From Chloroflexota bacterium (GTDB lineage: Bacteria; Chloroflexota; Dehalococcoidia; UBA2979): 64,000 nt of DNA. Shown here piece by piece: positions 2,651 through 50,438 of this stretch; position 1 is the first letter of the stretch, and the number at the start of each line of letters is the position of its first letter. The position numbers and the translations under genes were made by a program. The notes beneath the pieces were generated by a model, which was not told the origin of the DNA, made no database searches, and was given only the letters and a program-made list of their open reading frames with translations. The DNA lies in contig JAQBZW010000001.1 of assembly GCA_027622315.1 (NCBI GenBank), forward strand, positions 433-64,432, given 5' to 3'.

Positions 2651-3058
2651 CTATGTCCGCACCGGCGCGTGCGCCTTCACGAACTCGATGATGTCGCCGG
2701 TGTTCGTCCCGGGGCCGAAGACGCCCTGGAACCCGATCGCCTTGATCTTCTCGATGTCCTCCTGCGGGATGATGCCGCCGCAAAACAGCAACACGTCATC
2801 GACCCCTCGTTGCTTGAGCTCGTCCACGACGCGCGGAAAGAGCTCGAGGTGCGCGCCCGAGAGGATGGACAGGCCGACGACCTGCGCGTCTTCCTGGAGG
2901 GCGGCTTCGGCGATCATGGCCGGCGTCTGGCGGATGCCGGTGTAGATGACCTCCATACCGGCATCGCGCAACGCGCGCGCCACCACCTTCGCGCCACGGT
3001 CGTGCCCGTCCAGGCCGGGCTTCGCGATCAGCACACGAATTCGCTGTTCGTTCGCCAA
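2651..3058 (-). CDS. methylmalonyl-CoA mutase B12-binding small subunit (C-terminal cobalamin-binding domain homolog)
   Basis: (L)[40 protein letters not shown]...[13 protein letters not shown] contains the DxHxxG cobalamin-binding motif. The start is TTG at 3056-3058, preceded by GGAGGAG (5 nt). Confidence 0.8.
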
Positions 3059-3173: not shown

Positions 3174-3992
3174 CTAGCGTTCGAATTGAATGAGCTGGAT
3201 CCCGAGCCCGAAGGCCTGCTCCGCCGAGACCGTGGACGTGACCGACCGGGGCAGCACCCCCGGCTGAGCATCCGGGAGCTCGATCCCGTGCCCCCGGTAG
3301 CGCGCAATCTCGGCCGCGATGTCCGGTACCTCGATCGCGACCATGGACGCAGCGCGCTCGCCCTGCTCAGCGATGCGCTGCGCCATCGGCGAATCGGGAC
3401 CGGTGGGAGCGAGCAACTCGATCGTGCACTGGCTGCACGGCATCTGGCCGATCACCATGCCGCGGCCCTCAGCCCGCACCTCGCCCTTCACCTCGAGCCC
3501 GACGATCCGCTTCCACGTCGCCTGTGCGGCGTGGTAGTCGGCAACCGTCACGGCGAGGTGATCGAAGCCCTTGCCGGTGCCCACGTGGGCACCGGCGGGC
3601 GGCTGTGCGAACTCGATGAGCACACCGTGCACGGACTTCGGGTGCACGAAGCCGATGCGCCCGGCCAGGCCGTCGCGCGACGTCTCATCGATGAGCTCCA
3701 CGCCGGCGGCCTTCAGGCGCGCGAGCTCGCCATCGACGTCGTCCGTGTTGAAGCAGATGTGGTGCAGGGTCTGACCACGGCTCTCGAGAAAGCGAGCGAC
3801 ACCGGTGTCATCGCGTGTCGGCTGCAGCAGCTCGATCTCGTTCTCGCCGAGTCCGAGCAGCACGCCGCGCACGCCCTGCTCTTCGATCACGCGATCCTCG
3901 GTCACAGGCAATCCCATGACGTCGCGAAAGAAGCCGAGCGCGGCATCGGCGTCGCGCACGACGACGCCGACGTGGTGGACGCGATCGATCAT
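3174..3992 (-). CDS. methylmalonyl-CoA epimerase (VOC/glyoxalase fold) fused to a second VOC domain
   Basis: The N-terminal domain, [27 protein letters not shown]...[39 protein letters not shown]...[16 protein letters not shown], is MCE-like. A second VOC-type domain follows. AAGGAG SD precedes the ATG. Confidence 0.7.
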
Positions 3993-4610: not shown

Positions 4611-6266
<1,656 letters not shown>

Positions 6267-6439: not shown

Positions 6440-6516
6440 TGGTGGGCGATGGAGGGTTCGAACCTCCGACCTTCCGGGTGTAAACCGGACGCTCTAGCCA
6501 ACTGAGCTAATCGCCC
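6440..6516 (-). tRNA. tRNA-Val (anticodon TAC), CCA encoded
   Basis: The reverse complement folds as GGGCGAT-TA-GCTC-AGTTGGCTA-GAGC-G-TCCGG-TTTACAC-CCGGA-AGGTC-GGAGG-TTCGAAC-CCTCC-ATCGCCC-A-CCA: a full cloverleaf, 77 nt. Confidence 0.85.
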
Positions 6517-13976: not shown

Positions 13977-15542
13977 CTAGAGCCCGAGCGCCCGATCGAG
14001 CGGCGCGAGCTGCGCCTCCGTTGGCTCGGCACAGCAGAACCACGATTCGGTCAGGCCAGGCACGGTGGCGCCGGGCTGTGCGGCCACCGTGACCGGACCC
14101 TCCACGCCGAGCAGGTGCCGGTACGCCGCCGCCTTCACGTGACGGAAGATCTCGATCGCGTCAGTGTCATCGTCACAGCCCTCGCACGCCGCGGACTCGA
14201 CGATCGTCGAGAGCTCGCGCTGAAGCGCGTCGAGACGCGGGTCGGCCGCCGCCCACGTGTACGTCAGCGTGTCATCGTCGAACGGGCCGAGCCGGCCCTC
14301 GCAGTCGAGGCGCGCGATCAACGGCGACCCGGGCGGGACCAGCAGGCGGATCGCGTACTGCACCGGCTGTACGTTCGCGACGAGCCCGTGGCGCTCGATG
14401 AACGCCAGCAGGTCGAGGAAGTCCACCGCAGTCGTCCACGGCATGTGCGCCACCCAGGTCGGTCGCAGCGCGATGCCAGCGGCACTCGCGAGCGCGAGCG
14501 CGCGCTCCATGTCAGCCAGCGTGTGGCCCTTTTCGAGGATCGCGAGCGTCTCGTCGTTCGTCGATTCGAACGCGCACGTCACGAACAGACAGCCGAGCGC
14601 GCGCAGTCGCGGCAACACGTCGGCGTGCTCGATCAGGTGCTCGACCTTGATCGTCGCGTCGAAGGTGACCGCGGGGTACTGCTCATGGAGCGACTCGGCG
14701 AGTGAGAGCGCATGCGGCGCGGCGTTCAGGAAATCGGGGTCCCCGAAGGTGATGTGCTCGGCGCCGGCGGCCACGAGCTGATCGATGTCGGCCAGCACGG
14801 TCTCGCGCGCGACGAGCCGCAGCCGCCCGCCGTACACCGGCGTGAGCGGGCAATGCGTGCACTGGTGCGCGCACCCGCGGGTCGCCTCCACGTAGCCCAC
14901 GAGCCGGCGTGCCGTTCCGTGCGCGAGCCGCGCGTATGCGTCGAGCGGCGGCAGCCCGTGCCGATCCGGCACCGGGAAGTCCTGTCGTGCGAACGCCGGC
15001 TCCGCGCCGACACCCGGCAGCGCGCCTGCCGGCGTTGCTCCCGCAGCGCGCGCGGCGAGCTGCGCGGCGAACGCCACGAGCGCGGGCTCGTATTCGCCGC
15101 CGATCACCGCGTCGGCGAGCCCGTCGCGCATGAGGCGCGCGTACAGCGGCGACGCGTACAGCCCGTAGAAGGCGATGCGCAGCGGGAGCGCGCGCCGCCG
15201 CAGCCGTGTCGCGAGATCGATGCCGACGCGCGCCGCCGTGTGCATGGGCACGGAGATGGCCACGAGGTCGACGTCGTCGAAGCGCTCGCGCTCCGGCGAC
15301 TCCACGGCGAGATCCAGCGTGCGCACGTCGTGACCGGCGCGCCGCAGCGCAGCGGCCGGCGCGGCCAGCCCGAGCGGCTGGTGACCGAGCTCATACGTCG
15401 AGACGAGCAGCACGCGCAATGCGCGCGCGTCCCCCACCGGGCGAGGCGATCGCAGCGATCGCAGCGATCGCAGCGATCGCAGCGACGCGTCGAGCGCGAG
15501 CGACCGCACGGCCGATCTCGCCGGCGTCGACGACGCGGTCAT
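13977..15542 (-). CDS. B12-binding domain / radical SAM domain protein
   Basis: The N-terminal part, RVLLVSTYELGHQPLGLAAPAAALRRAGHDVRTLDL, is a cobalamin-binding Rossmann-type domain. YVEATRGCAHQCTHCPL carries the CX3CX2C radical SAM motif. The C-terminal roughly 120 aa include CEGC and WFCC. The ATG lies 7 nt after the nfuA-like stop. Confidence 0.8.
   Translation of the reverse strand: MTASSTPARSAVRSLALDASLRSLRSLRSLRSPRPVGDARALRVLLVSTYELGHQPLGLAAPAAALRRAGHDVRTLDLAVESPERERFDDVDLVAISVPMHTAARVGIDLATRLRRRALPLRIAFYGLYASPLYARLMRDGLADAVIGGEYEPALVAFAAQLAARAAGATPAGALPGVGAEPAFARQDFPVPDRHGLPPLDAYARLAHGTARRLVGYVEATRGCAHQCTHCPLTPVYGGRLRLVARETVLADIDQLVAAGAEHITFGDPDFLNAAPHALSLAESLHEQYPAVTFDATIKVEHLIEHADVLPRLRALGCLFVTCAFESTNDETLAILEKGHTLADMERALALASAAGIALRPTWVAHMPWTTAVDFLDLLAFIERHGLVANVQPVQYAIRLLVPPGSPLIARLDCEGRLGPFDDDTLTYTWAAADPRLDALQRELSTIVESAACEGCDDDTDAIEIFRHVKAAAYRHLLGVEGPVTVAAQPGATVPGLTESWFCCAEPTEAQLAPLDRALGL
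15448..15483. repeat. tandem repeat (GATCGCAGC)x4 inside the 5' end of the radical SAM ORF, encoding (SLR)n
   Basis: Four perfect 9-bp units plus one degenerate unit, read from the sequence. Confidence 0.8.
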
Positions 15543-23658: not shown

Positions 23659-23733
23659 GGCAGGGTAGCTCAGTGGTAGAGCAGGGGACTCATAAGCCCT
23701 TGGTCGGGAGTTCAACTCTCCCCCCTGCTACCA
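23659..23733 (+). tRNA. tRNA with anticodon CAT (tRNA-Met; initiator or lysidine-modified Ile2 not excluded), CCA encoded
   Basis: GGCAGGG-TA-GCTC-AGTGGTA-GAGC-A-GGGGA-CTCATAA-GCCCT-TGGTC-GGGAG-TTCAACT-CTCCC-CCCTGCT-A-CCA. Pairs 1:72 G-U and 31:39 A/G are imperfect. Confidence 0.8.
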
Positions 23734-26646: not shown

Positions 26647-28194
26647 TTACGGGCGCATCGTCCGCATACGCGGGCCGAGCTCGCGTGTGGCGAGCTGGAT
26701 CTGCGCGTGCCGGATGAACTGCACGGCGAGCGGTCGCGACTCGCGCGGATCGATCAGGTCGTACAGCCCGAACGACTCCGCGCGAAAGAACGGTGAGCGG
26801 TCGCGCGAGTGCAGATCCTCCAGTTCCTGGCGGCGGGCATCGGGATCGGGCGCGGCCTCGATCTCGCGGCGATAGGCAGCCCACACGCCGCCCTCGATCG
26901 GGATCGAGCCCCACTCGCCCGACGGCCACGCGTAGACCGGGCCGTTGCCGTTGTGGTGCAGCCCTGCCGCGACCCCGTACGCGCGGCGCACGATGAACTT
27001 CATCCACGGCACGGTCGCCTGGCTCACGGCGGACTGTGCGCGCACGCCCTGTCGGAGCGTGCCCGCCGTCTCCGCCTCGACACCGACCATGAACCCGGGC
27101 TCGTCCTCGAAGCTCAGGACCGGCAGATGGAACGAGTCGCAGAGGTCGATGAAGCGCGTGAGCTTCTCGGAGGAGTCGGCGGTCATGGCGCCGCCCTCGA
27201 AGTTTGGGTTGTTGCACGTGACACCCACCGGGTAGCCGTCGAGCCGCGCCAGCCCGGTCATGAGCGAGCGGCCGAAGTACGGCGCGAGCTCGAAATAGCT
27301 GTCCTGATCGAGCACGCACGCGATCAGCTTGCGCGGGTTGAAGGGCCGCCGGCGGTCGCGCGGCATCAGCGAGAGCAGATCCTCATCGCGGCGATCTGCC
27401 GGATCCGCGCAGTCGCGACGCTGCGGGAGCATCCAGGCGTTGCTCGGCATGTAGGACAGGAACGTCTTGACCTGGCGCAGGCAGTCGGCCTCGTCCTCGG
27501 CGAGGTTGTCGACGATGCCGCTGCGCGTGTGCACCTGCCAACCACCGAGATCTTCCTTCGACACCGACCAGCCGAGCGCGCGCTCAACCACCGGCGGTCC
27601 GCCCGCGAACAGGAACGCGGTGTTGCGCGCCATGACCGAGAAGTGCGACTGCGCAACGCGCGCGGCAACGATCCCTGCACACGCGCCCATCGCGGCGGTG
27701 GCCACCGGCACGGTGCCCAGCAGATCCGCGTGCGGCGACACGGGCTGGCCAGAGATCGCGTTGCCCGAGTGACGACTGCGGTTCGTGCGCACGCTGCCGC
27801 CGGCGCCCTCGTGCAGCCGCACCAGCGGCAGCCGCATGCGCCGCGCCAGGTGCTCCATGTAGTAGCCCTTCGCGCTGCCGCCGCCGTCCGACGCGCCGCC
27901 GCGGATCGTCGCATCCTCGCCACCGATCACGACGTCCTGCCCGTCGATGCGTGCGGTGCCGATCACCGCGTTCGAGGGCGTCAGCGAAACGAGGTTGCCG
28001 TCGTCATCACGCTCGGCGGAGGCGGTGAGCCGGCCGATCTCCTGGAACGAGCCGACGTCCACGAGCTCGTCGATGCGCTCGCGAATCGTGAGCAGGCCGC
28101 GCGCGTGCTGCCGCTCGACGGCGGCCGGACCGCCCATCTGCTCGGCAAGCCTCCGGCGACGCTCGATCTCTTCGACTTCTGGCTGCCAGGTCAT
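26647..28194 (-). CDS. acyl-CoA carboxylase carboxyltransferase subunit family protein (AccD/PccB/methylmalonyl-CoA decarboxylase-like)
   Basis: 515 aa in a two-domain carboxyltransferase arrangement: ...DGQDVVIGGEDATIRGG... and ...AMTADSSEKLTRFIDLCDSFHLPVLSFEDEPGFMVG... GGGAGG lies 5 nt before the ATG. Confidence 0.75.
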   Translation of the reverse strand: MTWQPEVEEIERRRRLAEQMGGPAAVERQHARGLLTIRERIDELVDVGSFQEIGRLTASAERDDDGNLVSLTPSNAVIGTARIDGQDVVIGGEDATIRGGASDGGGSAKGYYMEHLARRMRLPLVRLHEGAGGSVRTNRSRHSGNAISGQPVSPHADLLGTVPVATAAMGACAGIVAARVAQSHFSVMARNTAFLFAGGPPVVERALGWSVSKEDLGGWQVHTRSGIVDNLAEDEADCLRQVKTFLSYMPSNAWMLPQRRDCADPADRRDEDLLSLMPRDRRRPFNPRKLIACVLDQDSYFELAPYFGRSLMTGLARLDGYPVGVTCNNPNFEGGAMTADSSEKLTRFIDLCDSFHLPVLSFEDEPGFMVGVEAETAGTLRQGVRAQSAVSQATVPWMKFIVRRAYGVAAGLHHNGNGPVYAWPSGEWGSIPIEGGVWAAYRREIEAAPDPDARRQELEDLHSRDRSPFFRAESFGLYDLIDPRESRPLAVQFIRHAQIQLATRELGPRMRTMRP

Positions 28195-28215
28195 GTCAGT
28201 ACCTCCCGGGCGGCG

Positions 28216-29469
28216 CTACTCCATGGCACCCGCCGCCGCATAGTCCGCGATCTCGTCCGCGCTCAGTCCCAGCACCTCCGTCAGCACCTCGAACGTGTGC
28301 TCGCCGATCAGCGGCGCGCGTGATGTGACAGGCGGATGCGCCCGTGAGCGGATCGGGTTGCGATGGATCAAGAACGATCGCCCGGACGGATGATCCCCGG
28401 GCGCGGTCTCGTGGAACTGGTTGCCGCCGAGCGTCGGATCGCGATGCACGCTATCCGGGATGGTCTGATACGGACCGGCCGGCACGCCGGCTGCCTGCAG
28501 TTGTTCCGCCAGCTCATGCCGGTCGAATGCGCGCGTCCACGCCTCCAGCGCGTCGCGGATCTCCTCGCCGGCGGCGCGGCGGCCATCGAGCGTGGCGAAG
28601 CGCGTGTCGCGCAGTGCGTCGACGCCCGACAGCGCGACCAGCGTCTGCCACTGCCGGTCGTCGTAGACCGCGATCGCGCACCAAGAATCCTCGCCGGCGC
28701 AGCGGAAGAAGTCGTGCGGGCAAGCACTCGCGTCGTCGTTCCCGATTGGCGCCGGCGCGCTCCCCGTCGCCCCGTACTCGAGTAACGCCGGCCCCATGAT
28801 CGCGATGGTCGACTCGTACTGGCTGAGCTCGATGAACTGCCCCTCGCCGGTGCGATCGCGGTGTTCGAGAGCGGCGAGCACGGCGATCGCGGCATGGAAC
28901 GGATTCGACGAGAAGTCGGCGTACTGGTGTCCCCAGGGCAACGACGGCTCGCCGGGGTGGCCGGAGACCGACTTCAGCCCGGCCACGCCCGCGAACATGT
29001 CGCCGAAGCCTCGCCAGCGTGCGCGCGGCCCGCTGCTCTCCATGCTCGGCATGTTGACGACGATCACGCCGGGGTTCAGATCGCGCGCGCGCTCGTAGCC
29101 CGCGCCCCACTGCTCGAGCTGATCGCCAGCAAGGTTGCACAGCACGACGTCGGACGCGGCGACTAGCCGCTGGAGCAGCTCGCGGCCCTCCGCGGAGCCG
29201 AGATTCACCGTGCACGATCGCTTTCCCGAGTTCGCGTCCTGGAAATATCCACCGCTGTCGGGATCCGAATTCGCGTCGCCCGGGAGCACGCCGAACAGCG
29301 GCGTGCGGTTCGCTCGTCCGACCTCCATGCGCTTGCGTGACTCCACCTTGATCACGTCCGCGCCGAAGTCCGCCAGCAGCCGCGCCGCGAACGGGCCCGC
29401 GATGATCCACGAGAGGTCGAGCACGCGCACTCCCGCGAGCGGCCGGGGGGCGTGATCGCCCGCGCTCAT
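28216..29469 (-). CDS. CoA transferase family III (CaiB/BaiF/Frc-like)
   Basis: LAGVRVLDLSWIIAGPFAARLLADFGADVIKVE... is full length (417 aa). Its start overlaps the upstream gene's stop (ATGA). Confidence 0.85.
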   Translation of the reverse strand: MSAGDHAPRPLAGVRVLDLSWIIAGPFAARLLADFGADVIKVESRKRMEVGRANRTPLFGVLPGDANSDPDSGGYFQDANSGKRSCTVNLGSAEGRELLQRLVAASDVVLCNLAGDQLEQWGAGYERARDLNPGVIVVNMPSMESSGPRARWRGFGDMFAGVAGLKSVSGHPGEPSLPWGHQYADFSSNPFHAAIAVLAALEHRDRTGEGQFIELSQYESTIAIMGPALLEYGATGSAPAPIGNDDASACPHDFFRCAGEDSWCAIAVYDDRQWQTLVALSGVDALRDTRFATLDGRRAAGEEIRDALEAWTRAFDRHELAEQLQAAGVPAGPYQTIPDSVHRDPTLGGNQFHETAPGDHPSGRSFLIHRNPIRSRAHPPVTSRAPLIGEHTFEVLTEVLGLSADEIADYAAAGAME

Positions 29470-30332
29470 AGCACGCCCTCAGCGCGCAGCCCGGCGAGCG
29501 CCGCGCCGTCGAGACCAATGGCGCCGTACACCTCGGCGTTGTGCTCCCCGAGTCGCGGGGGGCGCCCGCCCACGCCCCCGGGGGTGACGCCGAAGCGCAT
29601 CGGCAGACCCGCATCGCGCGGCACGGTCGCGAGCTCCGGATGGTCGATGTCGACGAAGAACGCACGGGCTTCGAGGAAGGGGTCCCGCAGCAGGTCGGCC
29701 GCGTCGTGCACCGGCAGCGCCAGCAGCCCGCGCGACTGGACCGCATCGACCAACACGCCTCGCGTCTGCGTGCCAACCCACCGCGCGATCAGCCGGGTGG
29801 GACGTTCGTCCGCCATGAACTGATCGTGGGTGAGGTCCGCGCGCAGCGCGCGCAGCGCGCGCAGCTCCGCGACGACGGCCGGTGCATCCTCGCCGCTGAG
29901 TTCGCCGACGAGCGCGATGGCCTCCGGGTCGCGCCAGGGGTTGAACGCGACGTAGCCGTCGGCCGCCTCGTAGAGGCCGTTGGGCAGACCGTCGCCGCGT
30001 GGCGTGCGACCGCGCTCGAAACCGAACTGGTGGTAGAGCGACGCGTTCTGCATCTGGAACGTGACCAGCGTTGCGACGCGCTCGATCGCGATGTCGACGA
30101 CATCGCCACCACCCCCGATGCGCGCGGAGCGGCGGGCGATCAGCGCGCCGAGCGCGGCGGCGAGTCCCGCCAGCTCCGACGCCTGCTCCGGGCCAAAGCG
30201 CGCGGGGCACCCCTCGCGGTAGCCGTACAGGCCGAGCATGCCGCTCATCGCCTGGCAGACCAGGTCCCCACCCAGTCCCTCTCTCTGGCCACATATCTGT
30301 CCGGTCATGTCCGCCGCTCGATACGCACGCAA
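29466..30332 (-). CDS. CoA transferase family III homolog lacking the N-terminal about 150-aa Rossmann/CoA-binding region (truncated paralog)
   Basis: It begins near the catalytic-Asp region (GGDLVCQAMSGMLGLYG) and continues through the small domain and C-terminus. No N-terminal domain is encoded upstream in any frame; only 118 bp separate it from the divergent gene. Confidence 0.55.
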   Translation of the reverse strand: MRAYRAADMTGQICGQREGLGGDLVCQAMSGMLGLYGYREGCPARFGPEQASELAGLAAALGALIARRSARIGGGGDVVDIAIERVATLVTFQMQNASLYHQFGFERGRTPRGDGLPNGLYEAADGYVAFNPWRDPEAIALVGELSGEDAPAVVAELRALRALRADLTHDQFMADERPTRLIARWVGTQTRGVLVDAVQSRGLLALPVHDAADLLRDPFLEARAFFVDIDHPELATVPRDAGLPMRFGVTPGGVGGRPPRLGEHNAEVYGAIGLDGAALAGLRAEGVL

Positions 30333-38670: not shown

Positions 38671-38901
38671 GTCGACTGCCACGCACCGTCCCGACCATCA
38701 TCAAGATCGCAATGTCTCGTCCGTGCGGAGACGCGTCATACTGGCGAAGCTCCGCGACCCGGACGCCGGGAGCGCGGCAGAGGCTGGCGGCACGCGCTGC
38801 GAGGTGGTAGTCAGTGCCTTGCCCACGAGAGCGTGCCGCCGTCCGGCCATGATCCGGTCACGGCGGTCCCGACTGGTCGTGTGAGGGGGAGGAGTCAGAA
38901 C

Positions 38902-40875
<1,974 letters not shown>

Positions 40876-41071: not shown

Positions 41072-41863
41072 TCAGCGCCCTGTGAACTGCGGCCGGCGCT
41101 TCTCGGCGAAGGCCTTGCGGCCTTCGAGGAAGTCATCGCTCTCGGCGCAATCCACAGCCATGGCGCGCACGCGCTCCATGTCGCGCTCTTCCGGCTCGAG
41201 CATCGACTGCCGGATCGACTCGCGCACGAGGCGCACGGTCAGTGGCGCGTTCTCCGCGATCGTCGACGCAAGCTCGCGCACCGTCGGCTCCAGCTGGTCC
41301 ACCGGCACGACGCGGCTCACCAGCCCGAGCCGGAGCGCCTCCTCCGCGCTGAATTGGCGGCCGGTCAGCAGGATCTCGGCGGCGGCCGTCTTGCCCACGG
41401 CGTCGACGATCGCCTTCGTGCTCTCGAAGCCGTAGCCGAGGCCCAGCCGCGCCGCCGGGATCCCGAAGCGCCCGTCCTCCGCCGTGATGCGAATGTCCGC
41501 GCGCAGGGCGGTCAGCAGGCCCGCGCCGAGCGCGTAGCCGCGGATCATCGCAATCAGTGGCTTCTCGAGCAGCGCGAAGCCGTCACGAGGGCGGCCGTCG
41601 TCGCCGCCGTCACGTCGCGGCATCCCGCGCTCGCGGCCGAACTCGCCGATGTCCGCACCCGCAACGAATGCCTTGTCGCCGGCGCCGCGCATCACGACGA
41701 CGCGCACGTCGGGGTCGGCCTGAAACGTTTCGAGGATCGCCGGGATCACGCGCTGCATCTCGCCGGAGAGCGCATTGCGGCGTTCCGGCCGGTTGAACGT
41801 CATCCAGCCGATGCCGTCCTCGACGCGAGCGAGCATCTGTTCCGTTTCGAGCATGATTGTCAT
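41072..41863 (-). CDS. enoyl-CoA hydratase/isomerase family protein
   Basis: MTIMLETEQMLARVEDGIGWMTFNRPERRNAL...VVVMRGAGDKAFVAGADIGEF... GGAGGG lies 8 nt before the ATG. The upstream part of the track ORF is discarded. Confidence 0.8.
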   Translation of the reverse strand: MTIMLETEQMLARVEDGIGWMTFNRPERRNALSGEMQRVIPAILETFQADPDVRVVVMRGAGDKAFVAGADIGEFGRERGMPRRDGGDDGRPRDGFALLEKPLIAMIRGYALGAGLLTALRADIRITAEDGRFGIPAARLGLGYGFESTKAIVDAVGKTAAAEILLTGRQFSAEEALRLGLVSRVVPVDQLEPTVRELASTIAENAPLTVRLVRESIRQSMLEPEERDMERVRAMAVDCAESDDFLEGRKAFAEKRRPQFTGR

Positions 41864-41889: not shown

Positions 41890-42750
41890 TCAGGAGCTGG
41901 AGCGGTTGCCCCGGCCCGGCACCGCGGCCGCGCCCTCGCCCTGGTAGAGCCCGGCACCGCCGACCTCGCGCCAGTGGGTGTGTGCGAGCGTGTGCATGAT
42001 GAAGACGGCCTGCATCGCCGTCCACTGGCCCTGCGCGTCCTGCGTCTGGTTGATCGCTTCCTTCGTGAGCTTGAGACCGAAGAGCGGCTTCTCGGCGATC
42101 CGCTTGGCCATGTCCTCGGTGAACGTGCGGAGCTCGTCGTTCGGGACGACGTGGTTCACCATGCCCAGCCGGAACGCATCCTGCGCGCTCACCCAGTCGC
42201 CCGTGTAGAGCATCTCGCGGGCCTTGCGGTGGCCAAGCTCCCACGGGTGCGCGAAGTACTCGACACCCGGGATGCCCCATGCCACCACGAGATCACGGAA
42301 GCGCGCGTCCTCGGCGGCGATGATGATGTCGCAGGCCCACATCAGCATCAGGCCGCCCGCGATCGCGGCCCCCTGCACCTCGGCGATGATTGGCTTCGGG
42401 ATGTTGCGCCAGCGGCGCGTCATCTGGAGGTAGATCTCCTCCTCGCGGCCCATCGGCCCCTCGGCGCCCTCGAGCTCGAAGTTCGACCACGTGCCGACGG
42501 TCTTGAAGTCTTCGATCTTCGCGCCCGTACCGCCGCGCATGTCATGGCCGGAGCTGAAGTGCGGGCCTTCGCCGGAGAGGATGATCACCTTCACGTTCGA
42601 GTCGGCGTTCGCGTGATCGAAGGCGTCGTTCACGTCGTAGAGGAGCTGGGCGTCCTGGGCGTTCCGCGCCTCGGGGCGGTTCAGCGCCACGCGGACGACC
42701 TCCGGCGTGACGTGGCTGTAGAGCACGGTCTTGAACTCTGGATCGGCCAT
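41890..42750 (-). CDS. enoyl-CoA hydratase/isomerase family protein (HFSSGHD subtype)
   Basis: MADPEFKTVLYSHVTPEVVRVALNRPEARNA...VIILSGEGPHFSSGHD... Paralog of the 21583-22425 gene (HFGGGHD). Confidence 0.75.
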   Translation of the reverse strand: MADPEFKTVLYSHVTPEVVRVALNRPEARNAQDAQLLYDVNDAFDHANADSNVKVIILSGEGPHFSSGHDMRGGTGAKIEDFKTVGTWSNFELEGAEGPMGREEEIYLQMTRRWRNIPKPIIAEVQGAAIAGGLMLMWACDIIIAAEDARFRDLVVAWGIPGVEYFAHPWELGHRKAREMLYTGDWVSAQDAFRLGMVNHVVPNDELRTFTEDMAKRIAEKPLFGLKLTKEAINQTQDAQGQWTAMQAVFIMHTLAHTHWREVGGAGLYQGEGAAAVPGRGNRSSS

Positions 42751-42858
42751 CGATCGTCCTTTCGCGACGTGGCAGGGCCACGAACCGGCAATGTCGGCCA
42801 CGCCTCTCACCGCGCCGCGCGACGGGTCGCGCGGGCGGGCCGGGCGGGGCCGCGTTGG

Positions 42859-43704
42859 ATGGTACCGTCGCGCGCGAACCCGCACCGCACAGCGCACGAG
42901 GAGCACGTCGCCGTGGCCGACTACACCACCCTCACCCTGACGCGCGACGAGGGCGTCGCGCGCATCACGCTCAATCGACCCGAAGCGCTGAATGCGCTCG
43001 ACGAAGCGATGGCGCGCGAACTCCTCGCGGCAGCGACCGCCTGCGACGACGACCGAGCGGTACGCGCGGTCGTGATCGCGGGCGCCGGCCGCGCGTTCTC
43101 GGTGGGCGGCGACCTGAAGAGCTTCGCCGCACAGGGCGAGGCGCTGCCGACGCATCTCAAGGACGTGACCACCTACGCACACGCCGCGGTCTCTCGACTC
43201 GCGCGCATGCGCGCACCCGTGCTCGCCTCCGTGCACGGCGCCGCCGCCGGCTTCGGCATGAGCCTCGTCGGTGCCTGCGACCTGGCGATCGCCGCCGACA
43301 ACGCGAAGTTCACGCTCGCGTACACCCGCATCGGCCTCACGCCCGACGGCTCCTCGAGCTACTCCCTGCCGCGCACGATCGGCATGAAGCGCGCGCTCGA
43401 GCTCGCGCTCACCAACCCCACGCTCGACGCGGCGCAGGCGCGCGACTGGGGCCTCGTGAACTGGGTCGTGCCTGCGGACGAACTCGAGGCCGAAGCGACG
43501 CGCATCGCGCGTGAACTCGCGGCCGGACCGACGAGTGCATTCGCCGGAGCAAAGGCGCTGATGCGTTCGGGCGGCTCGGAGAGCCTCGAGAGCCAGATGG
43601 AGCGCGAGACGCGCGCCATCTCCGAGATCGCCCGAGGCGCCGACGCCCGCGAGGGCATCGACGCGTTCCTCGCGAAGCGAGCGGCCAGCTTCGGCGGAGA
43701 GTGA
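42859..43704 (+). CDS. enoyl-CoA hydratase/isomerase family protein
   Basis: ...VADYTTLTLTRDEGVARITLNRPEALNAL...VVIAGAGRAFSVGGDLK... Start is ATG 42859 or GTG 42913 (the latter after GAGGAG). Confidence 0.75.
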   Translation: MVPSRANPHRTAHEEHVAVADYTTLTLTRDEGVARITLNRPEALNALDEAMARELLAAATACDDDRAVRAVVIAGAGRAFSVGGDLKSFAAQGEALPTHLKDVTTYAHAAVSRLARMRAPVLASVHGAAAGFGMSLVGACDLAIAADNAKFTLAYTRIGLTPDGSSSYSLPRTIGMKRALELALTNPTLDAAQARDWGLVNWVVPADELEAEATRIARELAAGPTSAFAGAKALMRSGGSESLESQMERETRAISEIARGADAREGIDAFLAKRAASFGGE

Positions 43705-43741
43705 GGGCCGCGCGCGGCCGGACCACCGCGGGAGTCAGCCT

Positions 43742-44188
43742 ATGGCCACGCTGCGACCGGCGAGAGCGGACGATTTCCAACTGCTCTACGAGATCAATCG
43801 CGAAGCGCTGCAGGGATTCGTGACAGCGACGTGGGGGGCCTGGGACGAGGCCTTCCAGCAACGCTGGTGCCGCGACCACTTCCTCCCGGGTCGAGCCCAG
43901 GCCATCCTCTCCGACGACGGCGCCGTGGTTGGCTACTTCGATGCGGAGCGCCAGCCGAGTTGCTGGTTCCTCCACAACATCGTGCTCGCGCCAGCGTGGC
44001 ATCGACATGGGATCGGTGCCTCGCTCATTCGCGATCTGCTAGCTCGCGCCAGCGAGGAAGGCGTCCCGGTCGAGCTCCGCGTGCTTCGAGTGAATCCGGC
44101 TCGCGGGCTCTACGAGCGCCTGGGGTTCGAGGTGACCGGGCAGACCGGAACGCACGACCTCATGCGCTGGGTGCCCCTCGCAGCGTGA
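43742..44188 (+). CDS. GNAT family N-acetyltransferase
   Basis: ...HNIVLAPAWHRHGIGASLIRDLLARA... is the acetyl-CoA-binding motif. GGGAG lies 7 nt before the ATG. Confidence 0.8.
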   Translation: MATLRPARADDFQLLYEINREALQGFVTATWGAWDEAFQQRWCRDHFLPGRAQAILSDDGAVVGYFDAERQPSCWFLHNIVLAPAWHRHGIGASLIRDLLARASEEGVPVELRVLRVNPARGLYERLGFEVTGQTGTHDLMRWVPLAA

Positions 44189-44271
44189 ATCCGAGCAGAG
44201 CTTCGGAGAACTGAGAGCCCTCGGCGGACAACCGCGGGTCGAGAGTGTTGCCCCGGTGGCAGGCGAGTTAG

Positions 44272-45939
44272 CTAGATCGCGACGTAGACCGGCTGCTCGC
44301 CGAACACCCGGCGCCACATGTTGCAGATCTCGCCGACGGTGCAATACGCGTGCGCGGCCTCGACGAGGTACGGCATCACGTTCTCGCCGTCTTTCGTCGC
44401 CCGCTCGAGCTCGCTCATCGCACGGGCGGCGCGGGCGGCGTCTCGGGTCTTCCGCGTGCGGCGCAGCCGCTCGAGGTGTCGCGCCTCCCCGTCGGGGTCC
44501 ATCTCGAGGATGGGGATGTCGAGCGCCTCGTCGAGCACGTAGTCGTTCACGCCCACGATCACGCGTTCGTGCTGCTCGATCTCACGCTGATAGACCTGCG
44601 CGGCGTCCGCGATCTCGGACATGAAGAAGCCCTGCTCAATCGCCGGCAGCACGCCGCCGAGATCCTCGATGCGGTCGAAGTACTGGAGGCAGATGCGCTC
44701 CATCTCGTCGGTCATCGACTCGACGAAGAACGAGCCGCCGAGCGGATCCACCGTGTTCACGACACCGGACTCGTGCTCGATCACCTGCTGCGTGCGCATC
44801 GCCAGGCGCACGGCCTTCTCACTCGGTAGCGCGAGCGCCTCGTCCCACGAGTTCGTGTGCAGCGACTGCGTGCCGCCGAGCACACCGGCGAGCGCCTGGA
44901 TCGTCGTGCGGATCAGGTTGACCTCGGGCTGCTGGCTCGTCAGCGAGACGCCGGCGGTCTGCGTGTGGAAGCGCATCAGCCACGAGCGCGGGTTCTTCGC
45001 GCCGAAACGCTCGCGCATCTGGCGCGCCCAGATGCGCCGCGCCGCGCGGAACTTGCCGATCTCCTCGAAGAAGTCGTTGTGGCAGTTGAAGAAGAACGAC
45101 AGGCGTGGCGCGAACTCGTCGATGTCGAGGCCGCGTTCCAGCCCCCACTTCACGTACTCAATGCCGTTGGCGAGGGTGAACGCGAGCTCCTGCGCCGCCG
45201 TCGAGCCGGCCTCCCGGATGTGGTAGCCGGAGATCGAGATGCTGTTCCATTCCGGCATCTCGCGCGACGCGTACTCAATCGTGTCCACCACGAGGCGCAT
45301 GCTCTCCTCGGGCGGATAGATGTACTCGTTCTGGGCGATGTACTCCTTGAGGATGTCGTTCTGAAGCGTGCCACGCAGCGTGCTGCGGTCGACACCCTGC
45401 TTCTCCGCCGCAGCGATGAACATCGCCCAGATCACCGCCGCCGGTGAGTTGATCGTCATCGACGTCGAGATCTTGTCGAGCGGGATCTGGTCGAACAGGA
45501 TCTCCATGTCGGCGAGCGAGTCGATGGCCACGCCGCAGCGGCCGAACTCGCCGAAGGCCTCCGGCTCGTCGTGGTCGTAGCCCATGAGCGTGGGCATGTC
45601 GAAGGCGACCGACAGTCCGTCGTCGCCGTGCTCGATCAGGTAGCGATAGCGTGCGTTCGTCTCCTCGGCGGAGCCGAAACCGGCGAACATGCGGATCGTC
45701 CATGGCTTCGCCCGGTAGCCGGTGCGATGGACGCCGCGGGTGAAGGGGTAGGCGCCGGGCAGGGCAAGGTCGCGCTCGTAGTCGAGCTTCGCGACGTTCG
45801 TCGCGTCGTACACGCGATCGATTGGCATGCTCGATGTCGTGATGAACGGACCAGGCTGTTCGCGGCCTTCCGCGGCCACCTCGGCCTCGTAGCGCTCGCG
45901 CGCCTCGCGGGCGGCTTTCGCCGTCTTCTCGTCGAACAT
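44272..45939 (-). CDS. second coenzyme-B12 acyl-CoA mutase large subunit, isobutyryl-CoA-mutase-like (Gln replaces the substrate-carboxylate Arg)
   Basis: 555 aa. [33 protein letters not shown]...[21 protein letters not shown]...[11 protein letters not shown]. The other copy has [10 protein letters not shown] at this position. GAAGGAG SD is present. Confidence 0.85.
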
Positions 45940-45974
45940 GAAGCACTCCTTCTCCGAGCAGCCCCATCGTATGC

Positions 45975-46065
45975 GGGTGTTGTAGGGGCTTGTAGGGGCA
46001 GGCTGACCAGCCTGCCGAGCACCGCCGATGTTCGCCGGGCAGGCTGGTCAGCCTGCCCTACGAAC
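45975..46065. repeat. about 26-bp inverted repeats (GTAGGGGCAGGCTGACCAGCCTGCC ... GGGCAGGCTGGTCAGCCTGCCCTAC), each also a self-hairpin, preceded by a TGTAGGGGC x2 direct repeat
   Basis: Read from the sequence. It spans the SDR stop codon and the leader of the mutase-2 gene. Confidence 0.5.
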
Positions 46066-46849
46066 GCAGTCGGGCCTTCGTCGCCGCGTCCGCGAGCCGC
46101 TCGACGGCCTGCTCGTCGTTGAACGCCTCGCCGGTGCACGTGTCCGGCGTCTGTAGCGCCAGCAACACGGCGGCTTCGACGTAGCTCGCCGCCGTGGGCA
46201 GGCCGGCGCGCACGTCCGGCGCGAGATCGCCGCCGTGGCCAAAGCGCATGCCCGGCGTCTCGATCGCCGCCACGGGCTTCAGTGCGTTCACCGCGATCCC
46301 GTGGGCGCGCACTTCGCGCGCGAGCTGGCGCGTGAAGTCCTCGACCGCGCGCTTCGTGATCCCGTACGACCCCGAGTCCTCCCGGTCGGCCGCCACCGAC
46401 GAGATGTTGATGATGCTCCCGCTGCGCTGCTCGACCATGGTCGGAAGCACGGCGCGGGTGCAGAAGAACGGGCCGTTCACGTTCACGCGGAACTGGAGCT
46501 CCCAGTGACGCGACTGGAGATCAGACAGCGCGCCGGGCACGAGCACGCCCGCGTTGTTCATGAGGATGTCGATCCGCCCGTATTTCGCGAGCACGGTCTC
46601 AACCATCTGCTCGACCGACGCGCGGTCGGCGACGTTGCAGACGACGGGGAAGCCCTCGCCGCCGACCTCGTCGACCTTGATCGCCGCCGAATAGATCGTG
46701 CCCTCGAGGATCGGGTTGCTGACCTGCTCGGTGCGCGCGGCGATCACTACGGTCGCTCCCTCGCGCCCGTATTCGATGGCGCAGTACTCGCCGAGTCCGC
46801 GGCTCGCGCCGGTGATGATCGCAACCTTGCCCGCCAGCCTGCCCGCCAT
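46058..46849 (-). CDS. SDR-family oxidoreductase
   Basis: MAGRLAGKVAIITGASRGLGEYCA... (TGxxxGxG) and ...NNAG... with a YxxxK-type region. AAGGAGGA lies before ATG 46849. The upstream 28 codons of the track ORF are discarded. Confidence 0.8.
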   Translation of the reverse strand: MAGRLAGKVAIITGASRGLGEYCAIEYGREGATVVIAARTEQVSNPILEGTIYSAAIKVDEVGGEGFPVVCNVADRASVEQMVETVLAKYGRIDILMNNAGVLVPGALSDLQSRHWELQFRVNVNGPFFCTRAVLPTMVEQRSGSIINISSVAADREDSGSYGITKRAVEDFTRQLAREVRAHGIAVNALKPVAAIETPGMRFGHGGDLAPDVRAGLPTAASYVEAAVLLALQTPDTCTGEAFNDEQAVERLADAATKARLRS

Positions 46850-46989
46850 GCCGTCCTCCTTCGTCCCCGCGGGCGACGATAGCGCCCGCTTCCGGCGAGC
46901 GGAGCGCGCGAAGCCGCCGCTCGCCAGAGACACGAAGGCGGCCGCCCTCCGGGGCGGCCGCCTTTACGATCGTCGACCCGGGGGCTGCG

Positions 46990-48171
46990 CTAGTTCAGGT
47001 TCTCGAAGATCGCCGAGATGCCCTGGCCCCCGCCGATGCAGAGCGAGACGAGCCCGTACTTGCCGCCTGTGCGGGCGAGCTCGTGCATGAGCTTGACGGT
47101 CAGGATCGCACCGGTCGCGCCGACGGGGTGGCCGAGCGCCACCGCGCCGCCGTTCGGGTTCGTGCGCTCGGGGTCGAGGTCCAGCTCACGCGTGCACGCC
47201 AGGGCGACCGACGCGAAGGCCTCGTTCAGCTCGATGCTGTCGAGCTCGTCGCGCTTGATCCCCGTGCGCTCGAACACCTTCTTCGTCGCGGGGATCGGAC
47301 CGCTGCCCATGATCGCCGGGTCGACGCCCGCTACCGCACTGCCGACAAACCGCAGCCGCGGCTTCAGGTTCAGCTCGGCCGCCCGTTTCGCCGTCATCAT
47401 GACGAGGGCGGCTGCGCCGTCATTGATGCCCGACGCGTTGCCGGCCGTGACCCTGCCGCCCTCCTGGAAGGCGGGCCGCAGGCTGCCCATGCGCTCGATG
47501 CTGGAGTCGGCTCGTGGGTGCTCATCGGTGTCGGCGATCTTCGTCTCGCGTCCCACCTTCACCTCGAGCGGGAGAATCTCCTCCTTGAAGCGTCCCTCGG
47601 TCGTCGCCGCGACCGCGCGGCGGTGGCTCTCGACCGAGAAGATGTCCATGTCCTCGCGCGAGATGTTGTACTTCTGAGCGAGGTTCTCCGCCGTGACGCC
47701 CATGTGGTAGTTGTTGAACGGATCCGAGAGCAGGATCGGGATGCCGTCCTCGAGCACGCCGTTGCCCATGCGCAGGCCGAAGCGTGCGCTGCGGTCGTAG
47801 TACGGCAGCATCGTCATGTTCTCGGTGCCGCCGGCGATCACGATCTCCGCCTCGCCCGTCTGCAGCCAGCGAGCGGCCGTGGTGATCGCCTCGAGCCCGG
47901 ACCCGCAGAGGCGGTTGACCGTGTAGGCGGGCGTCTCGATCGAGAGCCCGGCGTCGATCGCGGCATGGCGTGCGATGTAGGCGTCCTCGGCCACCTGGCC
48001 GACGCAGCCCATCACGACCTGCTCAACCTGCCCCGGCTCAATGCCCGCGCGCTTCACGGCCTCACGAATGACCGCGGCGCCGAGGTCCGAGGCCGGTGTC
48101 TCGATGAAAGAGCCGCCGAAGCGACCAATCGCCGTCCGCACCCCACTGACGATGACGATGTCTTCGCTCAT
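46990..48171 (-). CDS. acetyl-CoA C-acetyltransferase (thiolase II)
   Basis: MSEDIVIVSGVRTAIGRFGG...NRLCGSGLEAI...NGGAVALGHPVGATGA...CIGGGQG are thiolase signatures. Confidence 0.9.
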   Translation of the reverse strand: MSEDIVIVSGVRTAIGRFGGSFIETPASDLGAAVIREAVKRAGIEPGQVEQVVMGCVGQVAEDAYIARHAAIDAGLSIETPAYTVNRLCGSGLEAITTAARWLQTGEAEIVIAGGTENMTMLPYYDRSARFGLRMGNGVLEDGIPILLSDPFNNYHMGVTAENLAQKYNISREDMDIFSVESHRRAVAATTEGRFKEEILPLEVKVGRETKIADTDEHPRADSSIERMGSLRPAFQEGGRVTAGNASGINDGAAALVMMTAKRAAELNLKPRLRFVGSAVAGVDPAIMGSGPIPATKKVFERTGIKRDELDSIELNEAFASVALACTRELDLDPERTNPNGGAVALGHPVGATGAILTVKLMHELARTGGKYGLVSLCIGGGQGISAIFENLN

Positions 48172-48407
48172 GATCGGGTCGCTCCCTGCTTCTCGAATCC
48201 CACTGGTGCTCACGCCAGGGCGGCGCGCCCACCGTCTGTGCTCGTGCCGTGTCCCATGGGGCCGCGCGTGCGCGGTCGCGCACATCCTAGCGACGGCGCG
48301 CGAGCCGAGACAACGGACCGACCATGCGATGTACTTTCCCGCTCCGCGTACCTCCCCGCTCGGCGTCACCCCACTGCGCGGAGCTCTGCCCCGCTGCTTC
48401 CGCAGCG

Positions 48408-48438
48408 ACCCCTTTCCCCCTTCGGGGCGAGGGGTGAC
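48408..48438. repeat. imperfect hairpin with UUCG tetraloop sharing the GGGGCGAGGGG motif with the 40938-41070 element
   Basis: gacccctttccccc-ttcg-gggcgaggggtgac, in the divergent region between the thiolase and typA genes. Confidence 0.4.
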
Positions 48439-48611
48439 GGCGCTCACGCGCCGTGAGGAACGCTCCCCCGAAACCAAGGTGGGGAGTGACCAGAGGCGGC
48501 TAGCTCGCGCGGGTGCGACACTGAATGCTCAACACCACACCCGTCCTTGCCGACGCCCGATCACGCCCGCCGATGCGCGTGTGATCACGTGCCCGGCCCA
48601 TCGGAGACCCC

Positions 48612-50438
48612 ATGCCCATTCGAGACGACATCCGCAACGTCGCGATCATCGCGCACGTCGACCACGGCAAGACCACGCTGGTGGACGGGCTGCTGCGTCA
48701 GTCCGGCTCCTTCACAGCACACGAGGCACTCACCGACCGGGTCATGGACTCAGGCGACCTCGAACGCGAGAAGGGGATCACGATCCTCGCGAAGAACACC
48801 GCGATCCGGTACCGCGATGTGAAGATCAACATCATCGACACACCGGGCCACGCGGACTTCGGCGGCGAAGTGGAACGCGGGCTCACGATGGCAGATGGCG
48901 CCCTGCTACTCGTCGACGCGAGCGAGGGGCCTCTGCCGCAGACCCGCTTCGTGCTGCGCAAGGCGCTCGAGCGACGGATGTCGATCATCCTGATCATCAA
49001 CAAGGTCGATCGGCCGGACGCGCGCATCAAGGAAGTCGTGGACGAGGTTTACGAGCTGTTCCTCGACCTCGACGCCGACGCGCAGCAGATCGAGTTTCCG
49101 ATCGTGTACTGCAACGCGCGCGCGGGCGTCGCATCACTCGACGCGGACACGCCGGGCACGGACCTCGCTCCGCTGTTCGACCTCCTGCTCGCCCGCATTC
49201 CCGCGCCGGTCTACCGCGAGGGGCACCCGCTCCAGGCGCTCGTGACCAACCTCGACGCCTCGCCGTACCTGGGCCGGCTCGCGATCTGCCGCGTACTCGA
49301 GGGCGAGATTCAGCGCGGCCAGATGATCGCGCACTGCCGTGAGGACGGCACGATCGACAGGGTGCGCGTCGCCGAGCTGTTCGTGACCGAGGCGCTCGAT
49401 CGCGTGGACGCCGCCTCGGCCGGCCCCGGCGAGATCATCGCCGTCGCCGGCATGCAGGACGTGACGATCGGCGAAACGCTGTCCGACGCCGACGATCCGC
49501 GACCGCTGCCGGTGATCCGCGTCGATGAGCCGAGCCTCTCGATGACGATCGGCATCAACACATCGCCGCTGGTCGGCCGCGAGGGCGACAAGCTCACTTC
49601 CCGCCTGCTGAAGACTCGGCTCGACGCCGAGATCCTCGGCAACGTCTCGATTCGCGTTTCACCGGCGGACCGGCCGGACACCTGGACCGTGCAGGGGCGG
49701 GGCGAGCTCCAGCTCGCGGTGCTCGTGGAGACCATGCGCCGCGAGGGCTACGAACTCACCGTCGGCAAGCCCGAGGTCGTGACGCGGGAGATCGACGGCA
49801 AGCTGTGTGAGCCGATGGAGCAGCTCTTCGTCGACATCCCGGAGGAGTACCTGGGAGTGGTTACGCAGCTGCTCGCGCTGCGCAAGGGTCGCATGCAGCA
49901 GATGGTGAACCATGGCACGGGACGCGTTCGGATGGAGTTCATCGTCCCGGCGCGCGCACTGATCGGCTTCCACACGGAATTCCTCACGGAGACGCGCGGA
50001 TCCGGGATGCTCAACCACCTCTTCCACGGCTACGAGCCGTGGCACGGCGAGCTGCGCACGCGCCCGACCGGGAGCCTCGTCGCCGACCGCCGCGGCGCGA
50101 CCACGACGTACGCGCTGCTGAACCTCCAGGAGCGCGGCGTGCTGTTCATCCCGCCCGGCACCGACGTGTACGAGGGCATGATCATCGGCGAGAACGCCCG
50201 CACCGAGGACATGGACGTCAACCCGACGCGCGAGAAGAACCTCACGAACATGCGCAGCTCGAGCTCCGATCGCACGGAGCGGCTCTACCCGCACACCCCG
50301 CTCTCGCTCGAGCAGTCGCTCGAGTTCCTGCGAGAAGACGAGTGCCTGGAGGTCACGCCCGGCGCCGTGCGCCTGCGCAAGGTCGTGCTCGACCAGAACG
50401 ATCGGTCGCGCCGGTCCAAGGGGCGTCCCGGCGGCTAG
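48612..50438 (+). CDS. typA: translational GTPase TypA/BipA
   Basis: [22 protein letters not shown] is the G1 motif. The domains are EF-G-like. GGAGA lies 5 nt before the ATG. Confidence 0.9.

Follow-up and report, generated by a model that had tools for sequence, protein, structure and literature searches.

A putative isobutyryl-CoA mutase-type large subunit encoded apart from its likely cofactor partners in a Tepidiformaceae-like Chloroflexota genome

Introduction

The isobutyryl-CoA mutase (ICM) of Streptomyces cinnamonensis is formed by a stand-alone large subunit, IcmA, and a B12-binding small subunit, IcmB, that is dedicated to IcmA; the icmA and icmB genes are unlinked, and the specificity residues of IcmA are Phe80 and Gln198. 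The same Phe/Gln pair occurs in IcmF, a fusion of a B12-binding domain, the G-protein chaperone MeaB and an ICM large subunit. Methylmalonyl-CoA mutase (MCM), with Tyr and Arg at the corresponding sites, is the fused protein MutAB in Streptomyces, and two-gene (split) MCMs are found in archaea and bacteria. Ethylmalonyl-CoA mutase keeps the carboxylate-binding Arg and has a fused B12 domain. Large and small subunits are also split in the 2-hydroxyisobutyryl-CoA mutase (HCM) HcmAB of A. tertiaricarbonis and M. petroleiphilum, in RCM of K. tusciae and B. massiliosenegalensis, and in the pivalyl-CoA mutase (PCM) of Xanthobacter autotrophicus Py2 (Xaut_5043/5044). Here we describe how a second acyl-CoA mutase large-subunit gene, referred to below as copy 2, compares with these systems. 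It lies in a 64-kb stretch of contig JAQBZW010000001.1 (the window, which is the whole stretch of DNA analyzed), from a Tepidiformaceae-like metagenome-assembled genome (MAG) of the Dehalococcoidia, Chloroflexota. The G+C content of the window is about 70%.

The window encodes two large subunits, and the genes of most relevance to them are as follows.

44272-45939, minus strand: copy 2, stand-alone acyl-CoA mutase large (substrate-binding) subunit with an ICM-type signature (PF01642, TIGR00641 and residue mapping)
4611-6266, minus strand: copy 1, MCM-type large subunit (Tyr, Ala, Gln, Arg and Thr at the diagnostic positions)
2651-3058, minus strand: B12-binding small subunit, 135 aa (TIGR00640, 172 bits; matches to PDB 2yxb and to HcmB, 4r3u_C)
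1674-2645, minus strand: MeaB G-protein chaperone (TIGR00750, 302 bits, above the cut-off)

On balance, we favor, with modest confidence, the interpretation that copy 2 is the large subunit of an IcmA-type, adenosylcobalamin-dependent ICM that probably uses the small subunit and MeaB of the MCM operon. The enzyme type is already known; what is somewhat novel is the likely sharing of one B12 subunit and one MeaB by an MCM and an ICM large subunit.

Results and Discussion

Copy 2 is an intact and conserved large-subunit gene

Analyses of copy 2 indicated that it is an intact open reading frame (ORF) of 555 aa, preceded by a ribosome-binding site (GGAGAAGGAG) 5' of its ATG at 45939. PF01642 matched residues 34-547 along nearly its entire profile (positions 2-512 of 512) with 732 bits (cut-off 22), and TIGR00641 matched at 748 bits (cut-off 304), which places the protein among the large subunits. 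The protein is 52% identical to copy 1, and the original prediction, made from the sequence of the window, was correct in calling it a second acyl-CoA mutase large subunit. A domain scan of the protein identified no B12-binding domain (PF02310). The NCBI entry that is 100% identical to copy 2 is named 'MAG: methylmalonyl-CoA mutase family protein [Chloroflexi bacterium]'.

The copy 2 gene is under purifying selection. Its ratio of non-synonymous to synonymous substitution (dN/dS) relative to its orthologue in the closest relative (locus L092) is 0.20; the corresponding values for copy 1 and the small subunit were 0.13 and 0.12. We considered the possibility that copy 2, as a paralogue, lost its partner when it moved out of the MCM operon and is now decaying or no longer catalytic, as it lies 41 kb from a small subunit and MeaB to which its orthologue is adjacent in the closest relative. 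This is very improbable, based on the intact reading frame, the G+C content at third codon positions (GC3) of 0.92, the dN/dS value, the retention of the catalytic motifs SGYH and HTQTAG, and the conservation of orphan orthologues over hundreds of Chloroflexota genomes.

Specificity residues

HMMER alignment of copy 2 to P. shermanii MutB (1req) placed Phe85 (within WTIRMFAGF) on MutB Tyr89 and Gln203 on Arg207, and the alignments to 2xij and 4r3u gave the same Phe/Gln columns. Relative to HcmA (4r3u), Phe85 corresponds to Ile90, Ala112 to Asp117 and Gln203 to Gln208. Copy 1 has the MCM states, Tyr and Arg, at these sites. According to PMC7238569, Jost et al. 2015 identified these two columns as specificity-determinant sites. 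The original prediction had noted a Gln in copy 2 where copy 1 has Arg and had read it as ICM-type; the alignments bore this out, with the Gln falling on the Arg207 column and not elsewhere.

The full signature of copy 2 is Met84-Phe85, Ala112, Leu118, Gln203 and Glu205 (RMF / SVAFD / AQNEY). To place it, we used an exhaustive search of 50%-identity representatives, re-aligned with a hidden Markov model because a MAFFT alignment had mis-set fragments. The representatives included 71 clusters with Tyr, Ala and Arg (Y/A/R) and 17 with Phe, Ala and Gln (F/A/Q) at the positions of Phe85, Ala112 and Gln203. After references were added (78 Y/A/R and 21 F/A/Q), four columns split the groups cleanly: 85, 118, 203 and 205. 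Every one of these columns had the F/A/Q state in copy 2 (F85, L118, Q203 and E205) and the Y/A/R state in copy 1. Leu118 and Glu205 are two extra discriminators between the groups, besides the accepted specificity sites.

An ICM reference was obtained with the intact part of an actinobacterial-looking F/A/Q representative (P0232) as query, which retrieved 120 actinobacterial proteins, three of them named isobutyryl-CoA mutase (by JGI or NCBI). The reference is therefore actinobacterial proteins named ICM by their source and not the verified S. cinnamonensis IcmA. The RQF...KEYIAQKEW states were present at all scored positions in 113 of the 120, and in six more at the readable positions. Over residues 40-330, copy 2 was 57-62% identical to the five actinobacterial IcmA-type proteins that aligned almost in full (60-62% to the best three). 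Its identity was 57% to copy 1 and to HcmA, 52-54% with respect to fused MCMs, and 38% in the case of PCM. The HcmA and PCM references were taken from annotated plasmids, and PDB alignments were also used. Copy 2 resembles the IcmA type in being a stand-alone large subunit of similar size (about 555-566 aa) without a B12 domain, in its Phe and Gln at the specificity sites and in its KEYIAQxE motif. It differs in that identity over the N-terminal 290 aa is about 60%, and in having RMF and QNEY where the IcmA type has RQF and QKEW.

The signatures of the other mutases of non-carboxylated or hydroxylated acyl-CoAs were as follows.

HcmA (X. autotrophicus Py2 and M. petroleiphilum PM1): RQI / STDFD / AQKEY
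Native pivalyl-CoA mutase (Xaut_5043): RQL / ANHQF
RCM-type (B. massiliosenegalensis): Ile95 and Val122 (PMC11599936 supplement)

Copy 2 matched none of these, the RCM comparison being by published residues only. An MCM identity (EC 5.4.99.2) was ruled out by Phe85/Gln203 and by there being no epimerase gene beside copy 2; the protein shares fold, size and 52% identity with split MCMs, and like them would need a separate small subunit and MeaB, but it has none of the MCM features (Tyr/Arg, Gln118, Thr205, epimerase neighbor), having instead Leu118 and Glu205 as in the F/A/Q sequences. An HCM identity was contradicted by Phe85 and Ala112 in place of Ile90 and Asp117 and by the lack of an adjacent 2-hydroxyisobutyryl-CoA (2-HIBA-CoA) ligase or meaH, in contrast to the loci L004 and L008. 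An RCM-type identity was contradicted by Phe and Ala in place of Ile and Val at the sites of HcmA residues 90 and 117. Like PCM, copy 2 is a stand-alone large subunit, and its predicted substrate is likewise a non-carboxylated acyl-CoA; a stand-alone PCM identity was contradicted by its lacking Leu at the Tyr89 site and Asn at the Arg207 site and by the 38% identity, and PCM also has its own small subunit and MeaB adjacent. An IcmF identity was ruled out because copy 2 has 555 aa and PF01642 only. Copy 2 shares the Phe/Gln pair with IcmF, and the IcmF model NF045497 matched over the mutase part at 378 bits (cut-off 1500); it is unfused, and IcmF was its weakest large-subunit match in the PDB (314 bits). 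An ethylmalonyl-CoA mutase is unlikely, based on the missing Arg and B12 domain.

A related possibility is that copy 2 acts mainly on another non-carboxylated acyl-CoA, such as isovaleryl-CoA/pivalyl-CoA or some other branched substrate, as a new specificity within the F/Q group. Cracan and Banerjee are said to have described, in 2012, a pivalyl-CoA mutase side activity in IcmF, which is likewise an F/Q enzyme. Copy 2 also differs from IcmA at Met84 and Asn204, and its orthologues have variable acyl-CoA genes as neighbors across genomes (CoA-transferases and carboxyltransferases). The native PCM signature and identity are very different from those of copy 2, however, and the four discriminating positions agree with IcmA, and we regard this possibility as distinctly improbable.

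Family and phylogeny

Copy 2 belongs to a large, conserved Chloroflexota family. Its 120 closest homologues, all from Chloroflexota and sharing at least 68% identity, kept the signature without exception. In neighbor-joining trees, MutB and human MCM were distant from copy 2, whose group comprised Tepidiforma, a homologue on a Deinococcus plasmid, the actinobacterial IcmA type and further F/A/Q sequences. It therefore did not cluster with bona fide MCMs, the outcome that had been named as counting against the original prediction. The ICM assignment rests on the signature and not on phylogeny because bootstrap values of the relevant deeper splits were 13-25%. Ten 50%-identity clusters, mostly F/A/Q, had uninformative member names.

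The representatives contained two other groups of interest. Several F/A/Q mutases (P0161, P0211 and P0184) are fused, either mutase-B12 (683 aa) or mutase-B12-MeaB (about 900 aa), a domain order that is the reverse of that in IcmF (B12-MeaB-mutase). In addition, many PF01642 representatives have neither Tyr/Arg nor Phe/Gln at these sites (V/V/G, I/V/C, I/V/L, L/T/C and others; for example, P0128, P0133, P0134, P0142, P0144 and P0243), which suggests acyl-CoA mutase types of unknown substrate, although some may be artifacts of fragmentary gene calls.

Cofactor partners of copy 2

Copy 1 is the first gene of an operon with the order large subunit, DinB-like, epimerase, small subunit and MeaB, the MeaB start having been placed by alignment to the MeaB of locus L092. 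The operon includes one further gene of diagnostic value.

3174-3992, minus strand: methylmalonyl-CoA epimerase of the copy 1 operon (TIGR03081, 173 bits, above the cut-off)

The epimerase, which in the window is confined to this operon, marks it as belonging to the propionyl-CoA/MCM pathway. Searches of the window by tblastn identified a single small subunit (2651-3058) and a single MeaB (1674-2645), as the original prediction had indicated; each belongs to the copy 1 operon. The only other protein of the window with a cobalamin domain is a B12-binding radical SAM protein (13977-15542, minus strand; PF02310 together with PF04055), which is not a mutase small subunit.

We examined 80 orthologous loci in species-level genomes, with up to 10 kb on each side, using four different small subunits as queries. 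The flanks searched amounted to 1.16 Mb, and 43 of the 80 loci extended 5 kb or more in both directions. A small subunit or MeaB was identified within 10 kb of the copy 2 orthologue in none of the 80, and in two actinobacterial IcmA-type loci the 8 kb around the large subunit likewise held no small subunit. Large subunits of this enzyme type are thus normally orphans, and copy 2 is no anomaly. The original prediction was right that copy 2 lacks its own B12 subunit and chaperone nearby, a lack that is usual in this family. In the actinobacterial loci, MeaB is encoded 5.5-8 kb upstream of the large subunit (L101 231-2463 and L100 1-345), and the immediate neighbor of MeaB in L101 is a thiolase gene, an echo of the thiolase-mutase proximity in the window.

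The closest relative (P0002, 85% identity, on seven contigs; loci L092 and L093) provided the best evidence on partnership. Its gene order is large subunit 1, an unassigned gene (x), DinB, epimerase, small subunit, MeaB, the copy 2 orthologue, DUF2344, His_Phos and DivIC. The window is collinear with L092 gene for gene, with 58-87% amino acid identity between conserved genes and one exception: DUF2344 directly follows MeaB, and copy 2 is about 41-42 kb away. Synonymous divergence (dS) from L092 was 0.50 for copy 2 and 0.58 and 0.70 for its former neighbors, and the closeness of these values points to an intragenomic translocation of the orthologue rather than a separate acquisition. The position of the orthologue directly after meaB in the MCM operon supports, and does not prove, the suggestion of the original prediction that the small subunit may be shared; it is circumstantial evidence that copy 2 uses the small subunit and MeaB of that operon. 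A Deinococcus F/A/Q homologue also adjoins meaB and a small-subunit ORF, which argues that the F/A/Q family uses canonical partners. That ORF (Deinococcus sp. KNUC1210 plasmid, L006 7227-7956) lies between meaB and the large subunit, lacks the N-terminal DxHxxG region and was skipped in the locus tags of the annotation; it is probably a frameshifted pseudogene.

The principal alternative is that copy 2 is an ICM-type large subunit with a dedicated IcmB-like small subunit, and possibly its own chaperone, encoded outside the window, with no sharing with the MCM. The two actinobacterial loci without a linked small subunit agree with this, as their pattern is that of the unlinked icmA and icmB genes of S. 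cinnamonensis. The large subunit was an orphan in 80 of 80 Chloroflexota loci, so that a distant partner gene would be normal for the family. Against a dedicated partner are the gene order of the closest relative, with no second small subunit in its 17.7-kb stretch, and the single small subunit of the window. The host of copy 2 also differs from that of IcmA/IcmB in that its MCM is split and the only visible small subunit is in the MCM operon. We consider a dedicated partner a realistic but rather doubtful alternative. That one small subunit and one MeaB serve both the MCM-type copy 1 and the ICM-type copy 2 is a tentative proposal, for which the odds are a little short of even.

Several points weigh against our preferred interpretation of copy 2 as an ICM large subunit that uses the MCM-operon partners. 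The bootstrap values given above are too weak for a claim of F/A/Q monophyly, and a search of the literature found no characterized member of the Chloroflexota/Deinococcus 'RMF' clade. Copy 2 has Met84 where IcmA, HcmA and most MCMs have Gln; we do not tie this residue to specificity because a Y/R protein of Acetoanaerobium also carries Met at this position. The meaB-adjacent arrangement of the copy 2 orthologue occurred in one lineage only, and as the partner count covers the 64-kb window, a dedicated small subunit may be encoded elsewhere in the genome. Finally, the window encodes no acyl-CoA dehydrogenase that would complete a butyryl-CoA beta-oxidation route.

Proposed function and significance

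Based on its residues, copy 2 is predicted to catalyze a radical 1,2-shift between short acyl-CoAs that carry no carboxylate, with butyryl-CoA and isobutyryl-CoA as the most likely pair. As it has no cobalamin domain, it would have to pair with a separate B12-binding subunit of about 135 aa, and a MeaB G-protein would probably be needed for cofactor loading. The MCM operon, about 41 kb away, encodes the likeliest candidates for both, in which case one cofactor module would serve two large subunits of different specificity. Sharing of, or competition for, this module would couple propionyl-CoA flux with butyryl/isobutyryl-CoA flux. Based on the absence of linked partners at the 80 loci, a shared module may be general in Tepidiformaceae-like Chloroflexota. 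A possible role would be to connect isobutyryl-CoA, derived from valine or from branched-chain starter units, with butyryl-CoA and acetoacetyl-CoA metabolism, which neighboring thiolase, short-chain dehydrogenase/reductase (SDR) and crotonase genes could serve. This role is inferred, as are the substrate and the physical association of copy 2 with the small subunit from the MCM operon.

These findings have consequences for annotation, as copy 2 and hundreds of its Chloroflexota orthologues are labeled 'methylmalonyl-CoA mutase (family protein)' in databases. An ICM-type assignment alters metabolic reconstructions of the abundant Dehalococcoidia/Tepidiformaceae lineages, specifically with respect to valine and branched-chain fatty-acid metabolism and butyrate/isobutyrate interconversion. 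In addition, the synteny provides a concrete, testable case of one B12 subunit and one chaperone possibly serving two mutases, which bears on the allocation of cobalamin between enzymes.

Genes surrounding copy 2

Copy 2 is preceded by SDR and thiolase genes and faces a GNAT gene.

43742-44188, plus strand: GNAT acetyltransferase, convergent with copy 2 (PF00583 and PF13673), the 3' boundary of the thiolase-SDR-mutase cluster
46058-46849, minus strand: SDR oxidoreductase (PF00106, 162 bits; ORF 46058-46933, probable ATG at 46849)
46990-48171, minus strand: acetyl-CoA C-acetyltransferase/BktB-like thiolase (Thiolase_N and Thiolase_C; ORF 46990-48477, real start ATG at 48171)
45997-46016 and 46038-46057: two perfect 20-bp palindromes in the SDR-mutase gap, GGCAGGCTG(AC/GT)CAGCCTGCC
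46926-46962, minus strand: GC-rich hairpin followed by a T-rich tail, TTCGTGTCTCT, directly after the thiolase stop codon

The SDR had no NCBIfam match above cut-off; its best solved relative was the (3R)-hydroxyacyl-CoA dehydrogenase domain of MFE-2 (PDB 2et6, E = 1.5e-42), and it also matched HSDL2 (3kvo). The thiolase matched TIGR01930 above cut-off (467 bits), the BktB subfamily model NF006552 slightly below it (539 bits, cut-off 565) and acetoacetyl-CoA thiolases in the PDB (E = 2e-129). All three genes are on the minus strand with the SDR and thiolase upstream of copy 2, as first described. The convergent GNAT gene makes copy 2 the final member of its unit and limits the cluster to exactly three genes; on the other side, TypA is divergent from the thiolase. 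An ORF downstream of copy 2 (43409-44008, minus strand) was rejected as a gene based on the lack of a Pfam match and the wrong GC3 phase, and the real genes in this region are the GNAT and a crotonase on the plus strand.

Co-orientation of the three genes stood, but their being an operon, as originally supposed, is unproven. The gaps are 140 bp (thiolase-SDR) and 118 bp (SDR-mutase), with strong hairpins in both. The hairpin at 46926-46962 has a 13-bp stem in both the minimum-free-energy and the centroid fold and looks like a terminator between thiolase and SDR. The SDR-mutase gap folds at -75 kcal/mol (z = -5.2), and its palindrome motif was found nowhere else in the window, with two matches in none of 100 shuffles. 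This palindrome pair could be an operator pair, a terminator or attenuator hairpin, or a rearrangement junction. A scan of 43500-48700 for sigma-70 promoters and terminators gave nothing above chance. Two contigs of other assemblies from the same population (L098 and L099) start within this gap, their first bases lying 87 and 24 bp before the ATG of the mutase. A thiolase was near the copy 2 orthologue in none of the 80 loci, SDRs were near a few and were distant ones only, and other close relatives had unrelated genes beside the orthologue. Together, the lack of conserved adjacency, the unrelated neighbors, the hairpins and palindromes and the contig starts leave the operon unproven; a separate, regulated promoter for the mutase is possible. 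The lack of conserved adjacency, the unrelated neighbors and the hairpins also undercut the use of a thiolase/SDR operon as evidence for a pathway.

The neighborhood also bears on the possibility that copy 2 is an RCM-like hydroxyacyl-CoA mutase. Such an enzyme would convert 2-hydroxyisobutyryl-CoA to (R)-3-hydroxybutyryl-CoA, which the SDR would oxidize to acetoacetyl-CoA for cleavage by the thiolase, and a complete route of three steps would be encoded by the three co-oriented genes. The types of the SDR and thiolase fit this scheme, and the best PDB match of copy 2 was HcmA (4r3u_A, 544 bits, versus 504 for human MCM), with which it has Leu118, Gln203 and Glu205 in common. However, HCM has Ile90/Asp117, and the supplement of PMC11599936 gives Ile95/Val122 for the B. 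massiliosenegalensis RCM-type enzyme, where copy 2 has Phe and Ala. HCM clusters encode a GntR regulator, small subunit, hcl ligase, meaH and large subunit, an arrangement not present at copy 2, which is not adjoined by a 2-HIBA-CoA ligase (hcl) or meaH. Given in addition the absence of the thiolase/SDR adjacency from the other loci and the hairpins between the genes, we consider an RCM-like enzyme unlikely.

Just beyond the GNAT gene are three crotonase/enoyl-CoA hydratase paralogues in a row (41072-41863 and 41890-42750, minus strand; 42856-43704, plus strand), of which the middle gene is overstated by a long ORF (41890-43236), and an adjoining acetyl-CoA-synthetase-like gene (38833-40875, plus strand). 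Based on the SDR and thiolase types, the three crotonases and the acyl-CoA synthetase, a link of copy 2 to C4 acyl-CoA metabolism is plausible, and the linkage is weak.

Other features of the window

A further set of acyl-CoA genes is located at 26647-30332 (minus strand) and comprises one carboxyltransferase gene and a pair of genes for family III CoA-transferases, of which the second seems to be truncated. Similar genes flank the copy 2 orthologues in L095, L096 and L097. An Rfam search found no cobalamin riboswitch or other RNA near either mutase copy, just two tRNAs. One tRNA gene (6443-6516, minus strand) is immediately upstream of the copy 1 operon and the second is at 23659-23730 on the plus strand.

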